The notes under the pieces are model-generated. The model had not been told where the DNA came from. It did no database searches and saw only the letters and a list, made by a program, of their open reading frames with translations. Positions 24,717 to 36,236 of a stretch of DNA of 64,000 nt are shown here, piece after piece; within the stretch, counting starts at the first letter, position 1, and the number at the start of each line of letters is the position of its first letter. The stretch comes from Clostridia bacterium (lineage in GTDB: Bacteria; Bacillota; Clostridia; Christensenellales; Borkfalkiaceae), in NCBI GenBank assembly GCA_017456665.1, contig JAFTIY010000018.1:8887-72886 (forward strand), given 5' to 3'. A program made the position numbers and the translations under genes.

Positions 24717-25484
24717 ATGATTAAAAAAGCAGATTTTCCTATATTAGAATACGATAGCAAAAAAAAGGCTATAATAAATCCCGATCTTTTTGCCGAAAAA
24801 ATAGGCAAGGTTAATTGCGATAAGCTTATAGTTACCTTTTTTGGCGAAGAGATAAAAAGGCTTTTATCTGTTGGCGAGATTGAACAAATTAAATTTTTGC
24901 CGGGTGAAACGCCGAACACCGTTTATAAGTTCGTAAACGACGACGTTATGATAATGCAAGGTATAGTAGGTTGCCCCGCTACCTGCGGTCAGCTTGAAGA
25001 GGTTATAGCGTTGGGCGCTAAAAAGATTGTTTTTTGCGGCGGGGGAGGCGTGCTCGAAAGGGATATTACCGTGGGTAAATTTTTCGTTGTAGACGGTGCT
25101 ATTCGCGACGAGGGCTTTTCGTATCACTATTGCCCTCCATCTCGCATAATTTATACTGATGAAGGGGTAAAAAATAGGATAATAAGTTTTTTAACTGAGC
25201 AAAAAATCCCTTTTATTCAAGGCATTACGTGGACGACCGACGCCTTCTATCGCGAAACCGAAGATATGATAAAATATCGCAAGGAAGAGGGGGCAAAGAT
25301 GGTTGAAATGGAACAGGCCGGTTGTATTGCCGTTTGCAAATTTCGTAACGTAAAATACGGTGCTATTCTCTATGCCGGCGACGACGTTTCGGGTAAAGAA
25401 TGGGATAATCGCGATTGGGCGCAGAGGTATGGAATACGTTCTTTTTTACTGAAAACGTGTAAGGATATAGTTAAGCAATTATAA
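24717..25484 (+). CDS. nucleoside phosphorylase family protein (PNP/UDP-1 fold)
   Basis: 255 aa; VEMEQAG motif typical of the family. Confidence 0.7.
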   Translation: MIKKADFPILEYDSKKKAIINPDLFAEKIGKVNCDKLIVTFFGEEIKRLLSVGEIEQIKFLPGETPNTVYKFVNDDVMIMQGIVGCPATCGQLEEVIALGAKKIVFCGGGGVLERDITVGKFFVVDGAIRDEGFSYHYCPPSRIIYTDEGVKNRIISFLTEQKIPFIQGITWTTDAFYRETEDMIKYRKEEGAKMVEMEQAGCIAVCKFRNVKYGAILYAGDDVSGKEWDNRDWAQRYGIRSFLLKTCKDIVKQL

Positions 25485-25495
25485 AAAATAAAAGC

Positions 25496-25889
25496 TCCGC
25501 AAGAATAATGGGTGATGTTCATAGCGGAGAATTTGAAATCGCTCCAAATGCAAATGCGAGCATCGCATTTGACTGGTCAAACGCATTATGGGCTAAGCCC
25601 AAGCCTTTATAACAAGCAGAAAGAGAGAACAAATTGGGAAAACCGAAATGTCCTCTCTTTTTCTGTTGTTTAAACGAAATCGTGGTTGCACCACGATGAA
25701 ATCTTCGCTTCGCTCAGATGAAATCCAAGGCGTTGCCTTAGATGAAATCAAATCCGTCTTACTTCAACCCTGCGAAGCAGGATTTCATCGCGCAAGCGAT
25801 TTCATCCACCTAAGGTGGATTTCACCCGTCGAAGACGGATTTAACTGCGTGATACTCCGCTTGGAGTATCACGCTAAACTGCTTGCGGA
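25496..25889. repeat. ~394-bp foldback, multi-hairpin region (candidate large structured RNA or MITE-like element)
   Basis: The ends TCCGCAAG (25496-25503) and CTTGCGGA (25882-25889) are complementary, with A/T runs outside them. At least 9 local stem-loops lie inside. GATGAAATC occurs three times (25695, 25717, 25741), facing GATTTCATC twice (25781, 25798) plus degenerate copies at 25818 and 25838. Confidence 0.8.
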
Positions 25890-25913
25890 TTTTTTGTTGT
25901 TTTTTGTTTGCGT

Positions 25914-25948
25914 AAAAATGCCGTTAATCGCGTTATAGCCCAGCTTTT
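25914..25948 (+). repeat. REP-like hairpin element
   Basis: aaaaatgccGTTAATCGCGTTATAGCCcagctttt. Confidence 0.85.
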
Positions 25949-26057
25949 GCGGTTAATAAGCAGATAACGATCAATAAAGAAGCGTTCAAACGGCTAAAAA
26001 AGCTAACGCAGATAAAAGTGGGTCTTCAAAACTAACGCATTGTATTCTTTGCTTCAC

Positions 26058-26211: not shown

Positions 26212-28149
26212 ATGCATTCTCAACTTGAAGTAAAGCTAATAAATAAAATGAATCAATTGCATAAAGATCTGATTAGGGGAATAATGATTCGCCACGATCT
26301 TTGGTACGATTGGAGCGATTTAACAGGTCGTTTATGCGTGATTATTACGCAAGATAGGCATATGTCGGTTAGCGAGGCGGCGAGCTATATCAACTATAGT
26401 ACTGGAGAGTTTAAACCCGGAAAATATATGCACGTTTGCGTTAACGATGAGGCTGCCCGTATGTATAACAACCTTAAACAGGTTGCAAGGTTGCAAAACG
26501 AGCTCAATCAACTTTCGGCTACGCAAATTTTGCTTCGACTAAACGAGCAAAAAAAAGAGATTAAACAAATTATTGATTCGATGAGAAGCGTTTGGGGCGA
26601 AAGCGTTGCAAATAAAAGACTTAAGCAACTGTTAGATGCCTATCCGCATTTAAAAAACACCTTTAGTATTAAGGGTGTTAACGAAATGAATTTTGATATG
26701 AGAATTTGCTATCTCGACGCTAATTCGGGTTATTTTCAGCTCGATCCCTATCTCGTTAACCGAAAAAAGACAGAGCGCGGTATTTGCGATGATATACTCT
26801 TTTCGTACACCCAAAGAAGAATAGAAAATGAAAAAGTTTCAAAGTATTTAATAAAGGAAAAATACAGCTACAACGTTGAATCGAACGGAAAATTTATTCA
26901 AGGCTGGAAAACGGAAGAAGTAAACAAATCAACTTCTTACCGCGGAGAATATTTAAACGGAATGAAAAATGCCTACGGAAGCCTCTTTGTGAAGGATAAC
27001 TATATCTATCACGGGTCGTTCGTTAACGAAGTAAAAGAGGGTTACGGCGTTTGTTTATATTTAAACGGCGATTGTTACGAGGGGTGGTGGCGTGCTAACG
27101 ACTGGCAGGGCGAAGGGCGCTTGTATAAAAAGGACGGAAGCGTTCAAACCGGAATGTGGAATCACGGTTTATTCGTAAGTTCTTGGGTTTCTAGCGAGCC
27201 CTTACGCGTTACTCCTATGCAGGTTGGAGTGCAAGAGCCTAAAAAAACGGCATCTTCTGTATCTTCAACCAATAGTTCGGGGGGTGCGCCTAAAAAGGCT
27301 GGCACAGAAATAGGTAAAACGCCGAGCAAGGTTGCCGAGAATAAAACCGTTTCACCTTCAAAAGTAGAGGCTACCACTTCGGCGTATAATAAACCTGTTT
27401 CTTCGGTGGGCTCGTATTCGTCAGCTCGCGTGGATTTAAATAAGCAAGCGGCCGCTCCATCGGGCAGCGTTAACCTCTCTATCTCTACGGCTACGTCTGC
27501 ATTAAAGCCCATATTTTTAGCAAAAGAAAGCGACATGGGGTATTGTTGCAAAGAAACATACGATGGCAAAACCGGGCTATTTGGAGTATATAAGTGGAAA
27601 ACCGGAGGCCATTACGCTTGCGAAAAAATCGGCAGGTTTTATAGAAAAGAGGGCATGTGCCTTGTTGAATATAAAGAGTATTTGCATTTGGGCTTTTTTA
27701 GCGATGGCAATCCAAACGGTTACGGGTTGATACTGCGCAGATCTGGCACTGCATACTTTGGAAAGTGGAAAGCAGGCGAATTAATACAAAAAATTAAAGA
27801 GTATTCTTCCATTAGAGATTTTAATTATTCTCTTGGTCGCCACGATGATTTAAAGGTTGATCTCAAAGAGTTTATAAACGGTTACGAGCGCAGTATTTGT
27901 ACCTATAACGAAAAGGGGCAAAAACACGGTTGCGGCTTATGCGAGTGGAGAGGCGGAAGCGAAAAGGGCAAAAGATATTTGGGCTATTTTAAAGATGATT
28001 TTCCGTATGGGGTTGGCATTTTTACCTATCCAAACGGTTGCATTTATATAGGAAGCGTTTCGATTAATTTCCGCTCGGGTGAGGGGTTGTTAATTAAAGA
28101 AAACGGCGAGTGCGTTTGCGGTAAGTGGTTTACCGATAATTTAGTTTAA
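26212..28149 (+). CDS. MORN-repeat protein with an unknown N-terminal domain and a Ser/Thr/Pro-rich linker
   Basis: 645 aa. YxGxxxxGxxxGxG-type MORN repeats occur in two blocks (residues ~240-320 and ~455-640), separated by a low-complexity linker. No signal peptide. Confidence 0.7.
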   Translation: MHSQLEVKLINKMNQLHKDLIRGIMIRHDLWYDWSDLTGRLCVIITQDRHMSVSEAASYINYSTGEFKPGKYMHVCVNDEAARMYNNLKQVARLQNELNQLSATQILLRLNEQKKEIKQIIDSMRSVWGESVANKRLKQLLDAYPHLKNTFSIKGVNEMNFDMRICYLDANSGYFQLDPYLVNRKKTERGICDDILFSYTQRRIENEKVSKYLIKEKYSYNVESNGKFIQGWKTEEVNKSTSYRGEYLNGMKNAYGSLFVKDNYIYHGSFVNEVKEGYGVCLYLNGDCYEGWWRANDWQGEGRLYKKDGSVQTGMWNHGLFVSSWVSSEPLRVTPMQVGVQEPKKTASSVSSTNSSGGAPKKAGTEIGKTPSKVAENKTVSPSKVEATTSAYNKPVSSVGSYSSARVDLNKQAAAPSGSVNLSISTATSALKPIFLAKESDMGYCCKETYDGKTGLFGVYKWKTGGHYACEKIGRFYRKEGMCLVEYKEYLHLGFFSDGNPNGYGLILRRSGTAYFGKWKAGELIQKIKEYSSIRDFNYSLGRHDDLKVDLKEFINGYERSICTYNEKGQKHGCGLCEWRGGSEKGKRYLGYFKDDFPYGVGIFTYPNGCIYIGSVSINFRSGEGLLIKENGECVCGKWFTDNLV

Positions 28150-35051: not shown

Positions 35052-35933
35052 TTAGTTAGCTTTTTTGTAAATAATAACGAGGTTTGAAACGTAGTAACAA
35101 TCGGTAAAATCAACCATTTGCTCACGTTCTTCGGTGGGGCTCATGCCGGCGATAATGCCGTCTACTGCGTTAGATTGAACTGCGGGGATAAGAGCGTCCC
35201 ATTCGTATTGGTAAACTTCAAGAGCCATTCCGAGTTCAGCTGCAATGTATTTAGCAACTTGAACGTCGTATCCGTTGGCGTAAAGGGTTGAGCCCGTAGG
35301 ACCGTTTGCGATAACAACTGCATCGTTTGCAGGTGTTGTTTGAGTCCAGTTAAAAGGATCGTAACCGCATTCCATAGCGATTTTTAAAGTGCCGTTAGAG
35401 GTATTTGTGTTGTTAGAAACGAGAACGATGTCTTCACCGCTATCGGTATCTTTATCTAAGCTTAAGGCAACCATCTGTTCCATAAGTTCAATTTTAGTTT
35501 GGAGTGAAATGGTGGCGATAACTTCGTTTACGCTTTCAACTAAAGGATTGCCCGTCGTAAACGCTACTGCAATACCAGTTTCTGCTTCGGTTGCGGTAAA
35601 GCCGGTTTGGTTGTTAACGAAGGGGAGATATGCAAGCGAGCTATCTTTTAAGCATTCTGCATATGCCGTGGGCTCTTCTGCTACGTAACCGTCGATTACG
35701 CCTTGTTTAAGAGCGATTAAAAGAGTGGGGAAGTCGGGATAATCTTTAACGGTAATATCGCTAATTTGTTCAAGTGCATCATAGTGGAAGGTGCCCGATT
35801 GAGCTGCTATGGTTGCGCCGCTTAATTCGCTTATGTTTTTAGCGTTTGAAAGGTCAACCTTGTTTCTTCCGCCGCAAGCGGTAAAGCTGAGTGTGAGTAG
35901 TGCTGCTGCTAAGATTGCAATAATCTTTTTCAT
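35052..35933 (-). CDS. amino-acid ABC transporter substrate-binding lipoprotein
   Basis: MKKIIAILAAALLTLSFTACGG lipobox; AGGAGA RBS before ATG 35933. Confidence 0.8.
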   Translation of the reverse strand: MKKIIAILAAALLTLSFTACGGRNKVDLSNAKNISELSGATIAAQSGTFHYDALEQISDITVKDYPDFPTLLIALKQGVIDGYVAEEPTAYAECLKDSSLAYLPFVNNQTGFTATEAETGIAVAFTTGNPLVESVNEVIATISLQTKIELMEQMVALSLDKDTDSGEDIVLVSNNTNTSNGTLKIAMECGYDPFNWTQTTPANDAVVIANGPTGSTLYANGYDVQVAKYIAAELGMALEVYQYEWDALIPAVQSNAVDGIIAGMSPTEEREQMVDFTDCYYVSNLVIIYKKAN

Positions 35934-35965
35934 AGTTCTTCTCCTATAACTATATAATATGGTTT

Positions 35966-36205
35966 TTGCAAAACAAAAAGGTCGAAGCAAAGTGCCACGA
36001 CCTTATTACGCAAAGTAAGTGTAATTAAATCGAACGAAAGCACTCCACAATATAATTGTGACAGTTGCAAAGATATTATCCTTGCACCCAACGTATAACC
36101 GCTCAAACAGTTATGCATTTCGGCAGCCGTACCTTTCTGCTTTAGGTCTTAAACGTTTGAGCGTCTACCTAAAGTTACTTTTTACAAACTGCGCCTCTAA
36201 TCATT
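35966..36205 (-). promoter_or_regulatory. lysine riboswitch (L-box) with terminator
   Basis: The minus strand carries AGAGGCGC, AGTAA, GCTGCCGAA, CTGTCA and TGGAGTGCT in L-box order. These are followed by the terminator AAGGTCG-13 nt-CGACCTT-TTTGTTTTG, just upstream of the substrate-binding protein gene. Confidence 0.7.
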
Positions 36206-36236
36206 CTATGATTCGACTATTAAGTTTTACCACGAT

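Follow-up and report, generated by a model that had tools for sequence, protein, structure and literature searches.

A Gut-1 RNA unit in a putative split terminator of an uncultured member of the Clostridia

Directly downstream of a nucleoside phosphorylase gene, a 64,000-nt stretch of DNA from an uncultured Clostridia bacterium (contig JAFTIY010000018.1, positions 8,887 to 72,886; the whole stretch is here called the window) carries an intergenic region that is packed with hairpins. Is this region a structured RNA, a foldback miniature inverted-repeat transposable element (MITE) or an array of protein-binding iterons in two opposed sets, as a preliminary description had proposed in turn? We found that it is a new member of the known, uncharacterised Gut-1 RNA family, and that the published 77-nt Gut-1 motif is only part of a larger oriented unit with two arrays and defined ends. 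The first two proposals were each correct in part: the Gut-1 family is structured and covaries, and the unit also shows sharp boundaries, ends resembling terminal inverted repeats (TIRs), dispersed non-syntenic copies and no coding capacity. The third did not hold for a protein that binds duplex DNA: the spacers covary as hairpins, the spacing is 17-24 nt and becomes larger with nested hairpins, and no rep or par gene lies nearby.

The Gut-1 motif and the unit around it

No known RNA family had been recognised in this region. We compared it with Rfam and obtained a match of positions 25777-25847 on the minus strand to Gut-1 (RF01706), which covers model positions 1-77 of 77 and scores 57.6 bits against a gathering cut-off of 50. 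No other RNA family matches the region. This part, termed array 1, bears the hallmark of Gut-1, namely three tandem hairpins with covarying stems between copies of (G/A)UGAAAU; its repeat units on the minus strand read UUAAAU, GUGAAAU, AUGAAAU and AUGAAAU. A second array at 25672-25753 matches the same model on the plus strand with a score under the threshold (33.5 bits, E = 1.6e-4). Among 17 related loci scanned, 16 gave matches at or above the cut-off for array 1 on the canonical strand (22 element copies), and no Gut-1 match was obtained at L135, at L223 and in two of five second copies.

Gut-1 was described as a candidate small RNA (sRNA) of 77 nt that came from human gut reads only and was classed on covariation, with no function or genomic context stated (Weinberg et al. 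2010, PMC2864571). In the flanks contained in the Stockholm file of that paper, the original Gut-1 members also bear a second, inverted array downstream, with GUGAAAU four times and then AUUUCAC four times, or GUGAUAU three times and then AUAUCAC three to four times. Therefore, the two-array layout is a family trait that lies outside the 77-nt model. Some of the original contigs contain several or tandem copies. The window element shares with the published motif the tandem-hairpin array 1 and the origin from uncultured gut bacteria. In contrast to the published motif, Gut-1 is here a module of a 180-365 nt unit with a second array, inverted linkers, a long-range helix and TIR-like ends. This unit has a fixed relation to terminators and to genes for tRNA and transfer-messenger RNA (tmRNA), and it also occurs in ruminant, horse and other gut metagenomes.

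Relatives were collected by a motif scan of species-representative genomes, which yielded at least 120 loci, and by a 20-mer scan of metagenomes, which added copies of the window's own subfamily (subfamily 1, see below). The loci from the motif scan belong mostly to metagenome-assembled genomes (MAGs) of gut and rumen Clostridia (Oscillospiraceae, Acutalibacteraceae, Ruminiclostridium, "Eubacteriales"), accompanied by chance matches in other phyla. From the loci listed, a core profile recovered 64 full-length elements, which scored about 90-160 bits in one direction and about 25 in the opposite one; the window copy scored 152.5 bits on the minus and 25 on the plus strand with nhmmer. The element therefore has a defined orientation, and its canonical strand in the window is the minus strand. 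The window sequence is identical in three independent assemblies. An origin from a plasmid or phage was rejected, since blastn gave no match to the element in either collection.

About two thirds of the 47 metagenome matches to the 20-mer TGAAATCCTGCTTCGCAGGG had to be discarded, because they represent an unrelated GC-rich palindromic repeat and not Gut-1. This intergenic repeat (...CCGGTGAAATCCTGCTTCGCAGGGCCGGC...GCCGGCATTTCACCGGG...) is found on many contigs of two metagenomes (L245, L246, L248, L249, L253-L257, L259-L261, L272, L274, L275, L277, L278, L282-L286, L288 and L289) and apparently shares the 20-mer by chance.

A literature search on Gut-1, PF05635 (see below) and terminator-lodged repeats in Clostridia returned the 2010 description alone. 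The composite architecture, the unit ends, the residence in terminator loops, the linkage to tRNA and tmRNA genes and the association with PF05635 were not found in the searchable literature.

Fold, covariation and strand

The 421-nt region folds far better than shuffled sequences on both strands (z = -9.1 and -10.1). Every feature noted earlier was recovered at its given position. The local hairpins are present at 25551-25571, 25590-25600, 25620-25660, 25679-25697 and 25804-25820, as is the 12-bp hairpin at 25847-25874, here called hairpin A, and the homology of the outer arms in inverted orientation was recovered between 25512-25532 and 25852-25872 (76% complementary over 21 nt). Hairpin A is conserved in every subfamily-1 copy and, in all loci fetched, occurs at unit ends only. 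Hairpin B, at the other side of the arrays, is terminator-like on both strands.

The 9-mer GATGAAATC occurs six times in the window, and five of these copies lie within 25695-25806 (three on the plus and two on the minus strand). Shuffled sequences led us to expect 0.25 copies, and none of 100 shuffles reached six. It had been suggested that the copies zip with their reverse complement GATTTCATC into a ladder of 9-bp helices. RNAalifold does not predict such helices, and the ladder is unsupported because the outer 3 nt on each side of the 9-mer form the closing pairs (AUC...GAU) of adjacent hairpins and because each array varies in unit number independently of the other: P5 is missing from L273, and P2 or P3 from L269 and L271.

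On the canonical strand, the anatomy is that of eight consecutive hairpins, each of them closed by A-U, U-A and C-G pairs. P1-P4 are joined by GAA, and P5-P7 are flanked and joined by four UUC linkers. Given this closure and the GAA linker, the 9-mer is therefore GAU-GAA-AUC, that is, it runs from the end of one stem across the linker into the following stem. The 5' segment AAAUCC together with the 5' arm of P1 can pair either locally, forming P1, or with a distal xxxGGAUUU at the junction of the arrays, and both partners covary (CCGUC, CCACCC, CCGCC, CCGUCC). RNAalifold predicts this long-range helix (X:X') around array 1, with compensatory changes at five pairs. When arms were paired with their own partner, complementarity was 0.81-0.95, compared to 0.42-0.58 with arms from other copies (P2 and P3: 0.90-0.95 versus 0.42-0.45; array 2: 0.81-0.89 versus 0.53-0.58). 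Both the stems and the long-range helix thus covary among the homologues. Three independent insertions were observed in the loop of P7, each of which is a nested hairpin.

The two arrays differ in their strand preference. In array 1, which contains 39 G.U versus 10 A.C pairs, 58 of 61 copies fold more stably on the canonical strand, with a mean difference of 3.2 kcal/mol. The energies of array 2 favour neither strand (33/61), and this array has 20 A.C versus 9 G.U pairs on the canonical strand, where it carries conserved tandem G.A pairs (89 G.A versus 3 U.C). The tandem G.A pair is located in P6 in the window and also in P5 in about 20 of 50 aligned homologues. We conclude that selection acts on the fold of a single strand, and that only in array 1 is it clear which strand this is.

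Terminator loops, tRNA genes and PF05635

The window unit belongs to subfamily 1. Its members measure 340-424 nt, extend from GCGTGAT... (the 12-bp hairpin A) to ...AATTCTCCGCTAAGAACATCAC, with the ends also written GCGTGATAC...GAACATCAC, and are distinguished by hairpins A and B and by about 110 nt of 3' extension. Both ends are conserved throughout the family. The window unit is 70-86% identical to the other subfamily-1 copies, and the flanks are unrelated. The outer arms do pair as previously described (25483-25503 with 25882-25902, 21 nt, 81% complementary, core TCCGCAAG/CTTGCGGA). The view that this helix and its A- and T-runs belong to the element had to be given up: its sequence is wholly different between loci, like that of a split host terminator.

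At seven of the 12 subfamily-1 loci for which both flanks were available, a perfect GC-containing helix of 8-12 bp joins the flanks at a distance of 0-7 nt from the unit ends; an A-run precedes this helix and a T-run follows it. Its arms are unrelated between the loci (TCCGCAAG in the window and GGCACACTCA, GGCGCGGAG, ACGCGGACG, ACGCTCGC, ATCCACCGCA and CCGCGGCA elsewhere). None of 132 mismatched flank pairs reached 8 bp in a control that required at least 50% G+C in order to remove A-run/T-run complementarity. Deletion of the unit in silico resulted in textbook bidirectional intrinsic terminators, with an 8-bp stem and a U-tract in the window and likewise at the six other loci. In the window, the outer helix is present in both the minimum-free-energy and the centroid structures of both strands. 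Judged by its locus-specific arms, it looks like a bidirectional intrinsic terminator that is split by the unit.

The units show no uniform orientation towards the nearest genes (9 same, 8 opposite). The arm directly adjoins the stop codon of the upstream gene in about ten loci, so that a promoter would not fit in between. Promoter prediction gave none inside the window unit; a canonical-strand RNA would need the weak minus-strand promoter predicted at 26105-26078. The 73 neighbouring open reading frames (ORFs) are ordinary chromosomal genes. Several genomes contain multiple or tandem copies, with two to three per contig in some of them.

In subfamily 2, 27 of 52 copies lie downstream of a tRNA or tmRNA gene, at a distance of 29-42 nt and in the orientation of that gene, and in all 27 co-oriented cases the canonical strand is the sense strand of the adjacent gene. 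At least ten tRNA types are represented. The layout is CCA/GAAAAA-hairpin-TTTTTCAACTAAATCC, and identical copies of hairpin-T modules were found behind five different tRNA genes from different genomes. A highly conserved gene for a PF05635 protein (23S_rRNA_IVP, a four-helix bundle) begins about 34 nt past the element in 15 tRNA-linked loci (L178:3125-3487 on the minus strand, L176:4019-4372, L225:995-1351, L292:8001-8345 and 11 further loci), and its -35 box adjoins the last repeat of the element. It is followed by a variable small gene (WapI-like, DMP19 or nucleotidyltransferase), sometimes with a second element copy thereafter. Among 8,000 candidates scored, more than 7,800 proteins belong to this PF05635 lineage at E <= 1e-20; each of the 120 best shares at least 86% identity with the query, and many proteins of the lineage are encoded on short contigs (<2 kb), as expected of a repeat. 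The window contains no PF05635 homologue.

Two explanations for the tRNA linkage were tried and rejected. An att-flanked island is not indicated, as neither a repeat of the tRNA 3' end of at least 11 nt within 4 kb downstream nor an integrase was found. A tRNA-primed retro-insertion was suggested by the junction CCA/GAAAA, which is present in every case, but this junction is not diagnostic, because element-free tRNA genes also carry terminators consisting of CCA, an A-run, a hairpin and a T-run.

Some further observations concern these tRNA-linked loci. The terminator hairpins of tRNA genes share the apex (C)GACAAGTTTCGACTTGTC(G) / TTGTCGAAAGACAA both with an element (L140, L170, L177, L200, L209) and without one (L131, L152, L214), and these post-tRNA terminators may themselves be a repeat family. 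Two to three sequence-identical Gut-1 elements stand in tandem behind a tRNA-Leu(caa) gene at L292:7411-7959, with a run of N inside the array; the repeat appears to break assemblies. At L140:2980-3300, and at this locus only, an imperfect direct repeat AATCCGTT.T....T..TACCAGAAAAA with a hairpin and a T-run flanks the element, as if a tRNA-like 3' fragment had been duplicated along with its terminator. At L172:1182-1770, a single tRNA-Leu gene is surrounded by three elements. One of them lacks hairpin T, is inverted and ends 9 nt from the tRNA 5' end, which leaves two options, a tRNA promoter within or beyond the element or a leader that holds a whole reverse-strand element.

The nature of the unit

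Gut-1 membership, a common architecture, sharp TIR-like ends, locus-specific flanking stems that give normal terminators once the unit is removed, and non-syntenic copies in many Clostridia genomes are what we observed. The best-supported reading, to which we give an even chance, is that the non-coding, strand-defined Gut-1 unit is a non-autonomous, dispersed structured repeat that resides in terminators and is transcribed passively. It would then be a unit of the MITE, repetitive extragenic palindromic (REP) or enterobacterial repetitive intergenic consensus (ERIC) kind that occupies terminator loops, with a sister subfamily occupying the 3' flank of tRNA and tmRNA genes. Such a unit would have no promoter of its own; the transcript of any neighbour that runs into the terminator would passively include it as a 3' tail. 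In the window this would apply to the phosphorylase mRNA, which would contain the unit in its reverse-strand form and may stop at hairpin B or at the outer helix. Tight local folding would hold the terminator arms close and preserve termination in both directions, which would make the site a safe harbour. The conserved GAUGAAAUC junctions are candidate recognition sites for a trans-acting protein that moves or binds the unit.

Similar repeats are known from other bacteria. REP/BIME and ERIC (IRU) of enterobacteria and BOX of Streptococcus pneumoniae are non-coding, modular, palindromic intergenic repeats at the 3' ends of genes, which are co-transcribed with their neighbours and vary in the number of modules; ERIC is in addition conserved between species at non-syntenic sites. 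The Gut-1 unit is likewise non-coding, modular, palindromic, located at gene 3' ends and variable in module number, and like ERIC it is highly conserved between species at non-syntenic sites. However, it has no sequence similarity to these repeats and no RAYT-type transposase, each of its hairpins differs with only the junction 9-mer being conserved, and it lies inside the terminator loop rather than beside the terminator. The MITEs Correia of Neisseria and RUP of pneumococcus are small, non-coding, dispersed and non-autonomous, with terminal inverted repeats, sharp boundaries and AT-rich targets. The Gut-1 unit resembles them in its small size, lack of coding capacity, TIR-like ends, sharp boundaries, AT-rich targets and dispersal. 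In contrast to these MITEs, its TIRs are only about 70-76% matched, no parent transposon was found, and the copies are old and covarying and do not represent a recent burst.

Several points weigh against a passive, terminator-lodged repeat. Between lineages, the heptamer and the linker within it change in a coordinated way in the two arrays (GAA/UUC here, GAU/AUC in another), which lies outside what a safe harbour explains. The copies are not near-identical but differ by compensatory changes, and one strand of array 1 is the more stable; both traits are more typical of a functional RNA than of a young MITE. A 3-bp target duplication, which had been proposed as a mark of a MITE, was present at 5 of 13 loci (TTA on the minus strand in the window) compared to 14% in mismatched controls, which is suggestive at most. 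At the fetched loci, neither a transposase or integrase (73 neighbouring ORFs) nor an autonomous element sharing the unit's ends was found near the copies. An empty counterpart was found for none of the occupied loci, and the window host has no close relatives, its phosphorylase having no relative above 58% identity in the protein collection. Only one copy was detected in the 64-kb window by the profile search. Finally, the preservation of termination by folding is a step that we infer, and we count this against the reading as well. With the unit delimited, Gut-1, an orphan "sRNA" in Rfam since 2010, becomes testable: do terminators serve a mobile element as safe harbours, which factor binds GAUGAAAUC, and is the fate of mRNA 3' ends altered?

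The main rival, supported by the depth of covariation and the strand bias of array 1, is a dedicated structured RNA. It would be an extended Gut-1 RNA gene of about 365-400 nt on the minus strand that acts in trans or as a module of 3' untranslated regions, possibly as a scaffold or sponge in which the GAUGAAAUC junctions and the tandem G.A hairpins bind several copies of one protein, and the closing helix with its U-tract would be its own terminator. On the basis of covariation, Gut-1 counts as an sRNA in both Rfam and Weinberg et al. (2010, PMC2864571). All hairpins and the long-range helix covary, G.U pairs of the extension exist on the canonical strand only, the tandem G.A pairs of P5 and P6 are conserved, the fold is kept despite insertions into loops, and identity between species is high. 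The G.U excess and the greater stability of array 1 point in the same direction, but array 2 has no such preference. Moreover, no conserved promoter was found in or upstream of the unit, and many loci have no room for one. The orientation to transcribed neighbours is mixed, and the phosphorylase gene of the window feeds the reverse strand only. Synteny is absent, and unlike the other stems, the closing helix shares no sequence among copies with 80% identical interiors. We therefore regard a dedicated RNA as possible but doubtful. A type III toxin-antitoxin RNA array, also considered, was rejected, because sequence varies between the units, which are not followed by a ToxN, CptN or AbiE-like gene.

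A bolder variant of the mobile-repeat reading, which we think unlikely, is that Gut-1 units are unrecognised mobile structured elements homing to hairpins, with one subfamily inserting into terminator loops, another directly after tRNA or tmRNA genes, and further small hairpins nesting in the loops of the units themselves. As a quasi-palindrome with a GAA-linked array on each strand, the unit would provide a functional transcribed tail whichever way the terminator is read. PF05635, the recurrent partner, is also encoded in hairpin-loop intervening sequences of 23S rRNA and could share a loop-insertion or RNA-binding mechanism with it.

The fold might alternatively act in single-stranded DNA, on the lagging-strand template, as a recombination site, cassette boundary or priming site comparable to integron attC, the ends of IS200/IS605 and REP or rolling-circle single-strand origins. 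A strand-specific hairpin fold would suit this, as G.T and G.A pairs are tolerated in DNA too, and so would the co-orientation with the tRNA or tmRNA sense strand (27/27), the tandem arrays, the insertion of hairpins within hairpin loops and the bracketing of variable small cassettes (PF05635 plus a WapI-like, DMP19 or nucleotidyltransferase gene). Integron attC sites are folded, strand-specific and non-coding, and separate small promoterless genes in cassette arrays. The Gut-1 unit is also folded, strand-specific and non-coding, lies between small variable genes and forms tandem arrays, but no integrase and no R''/L''-L'/R' boxes were found, and it has many hairpins instead of a single imperfect one. 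A tyrosine recombinase, HUH transposase or replication gene is missing among the 73 neighbouring ORFs, there are no att-type direct repeats and no matches in the plasmid and phage collections, and the loops of array 1 are like the RNA-type UUCG and UACG loops. A role in single-stranded DNA thus seems decidedly improbable to us.

Despite the identity of its heptamer to a box of phage P1 parS, a duplex protein-binding array is the weakest reading, and we consider it very improbable. The opposed GTGAAAT/ATTTCAC boxes would serve here as a centromere- or operator-like site for a ParB-type or other helix-turn-helix protein. The heptamer is indeed identical to the annotated ParB A-boxes of P1 parS and, as there, occurs in both orientations. 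The boxes are repeated every 17-24 bp in two opposed sets, shift in concert in both arrays of another lineage (GTGATAT/ATATCAC) and, in the tRNA-linked subfamily, end exactly at the -35 box of the PF05635 promoter. However, a duplex-binding site has no need of spacers that covary as hairpins, the spacing is unphased and tolerates nested insertions of at least 20 nt, and the three terminal nucleotides at either end of the 9-mer close stems. Housekeeping genes surround the element, with no par or rep gene among them, and plasmids and phages gave no blastn match. P1 parS combines four boxes with B-boxes and an IHF site beside parAB in duplex DNA, whereas Gut-1 has 8-9 boxes among covarying hairpins and no par genes. 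In the parS record itself (L291:3913-3995), the annotated A-type boxes are ATTTCAC, ATTTCAA and GTGAAAT, and AAGGTGAAATCG-CCA-CGATTTCACCTT is a hairpin-forming inverted repeat.

A local palindromic oddity or assembly artefact, to which the single copy in the window might have pointed, is refuted by the three independent assemblies, the 64 homologues in other genomes and metagenomes and the Rfam match, and we give it practically no credence.

Coordinates of the features are listed in Table 1.

Table 1. Features of the Gut-1 region, in window positions
Feature	Position	Strand	Remarks
Nucleoside phosphorylase gene (PNP_UDP_1)	24717..25484	+	PF01048, E = 2.5e-28; stop codon adjoins left terminator arm
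Left half of putative terminator: A-rich run, then GC-rich arm (GC)TCCGCAAG	25483..25503	none	Inverted-repeat pair; folding
Left remnant of putative terminator loop, AATAAT	25504..25509	none	Between left arm and unit
Conserved subfamily-1 Gut-1 unit, 365 nt	25510..25874	-	Canonical 5' end 25874, 3' end 25510; alignments
Right TIR-like end = canonical 3' end (...AAUUCUCCGCUAUGAACAUCACCC)	25510..25532	-	Degenerate inverted copy of hairpin A; 76% over 21 nt
3' extension domain	25533..25615	-	Inverted repeats and subfamily alignments
Extension stem CAAAUGCGA/UCGCAUUUG	25551-25571	-	
Extension stem GCGUUUGAC/GUCAAAUGC	25565-25585	-	G.U pair on minus strand only
Extension stem GGGC-uua-GCCC	25590-25600	-	
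Hairpin B: long purine/pyrimidine-rich stem, nested apical hairpin	25616..25668	-	Conserved across subfamily 1
Array 2: hairpins P5-P7	25672..25753	-	UUC linkers on canonical strand; Gut-1 match on plus strand
Strand X' of long-range helix, AAGACGGAUUU on minus strand	25750..25760	-	At junction of the two arrays
Central hairpin P4, CCUGC-uuc-GCAGG	25768..25780	-	U-rich sequence after P4 on both strands
Array 1 = Rfam Gut-1 RNA (RF01706)	25777..25847	-	P1-P3 and start of P4; GAA linkers
Strand X of long-range helix, AAAUCCGUCUU on minus strand	25832..25842	-	Overlaps P1 5' arm; X:X' 11 bp, 100% complementary
Hairpin A: perfect 12-bp stem, 4-nt loop	25847..25874	-	Left TIR-like end at canonical 5' end
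Right remnant of putative terminator loop, TAAACTG	25875..25881	none	Between unit and right arm
Right half of putative terminator: arm CTTGCGGA, then T-run (TTTTTTGTTGTTT)	25882..25902	none	
Spurious 96-aa ORF created by the repeats	25648..25938	+	Without Pfam family, not conserved

The non-coding nature of the region, which had been assumed from the start, was confirmed: the phosphorylase stop codon at 25484 adjoins the left arm, and the unit has no coding capacity. The 96-aa ORF across the repeats had correctly been regarded as their artefact. It has no Pfam match, and the longest stop-free stretch on the same strand measures 42-69 aa in 12 homologous units. A gene of 96 aa has been called across the repeat in public assemblies (L121:3932-4222; L122:2774-3064), very likely by mis-annotation, and this ORF is thus a recurrent annotation error. 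The downstream neighbour of the region is a MORN-repeat gene (645 aa, 26212-28149, plus strand). Elsewhere in the window, a lysine riboswitch aptamer (RF00168, 100.5 bits) is located at 36030-36207 on the minus strand, upstream of a 312-aa ORF (35052-35990, minus strand).

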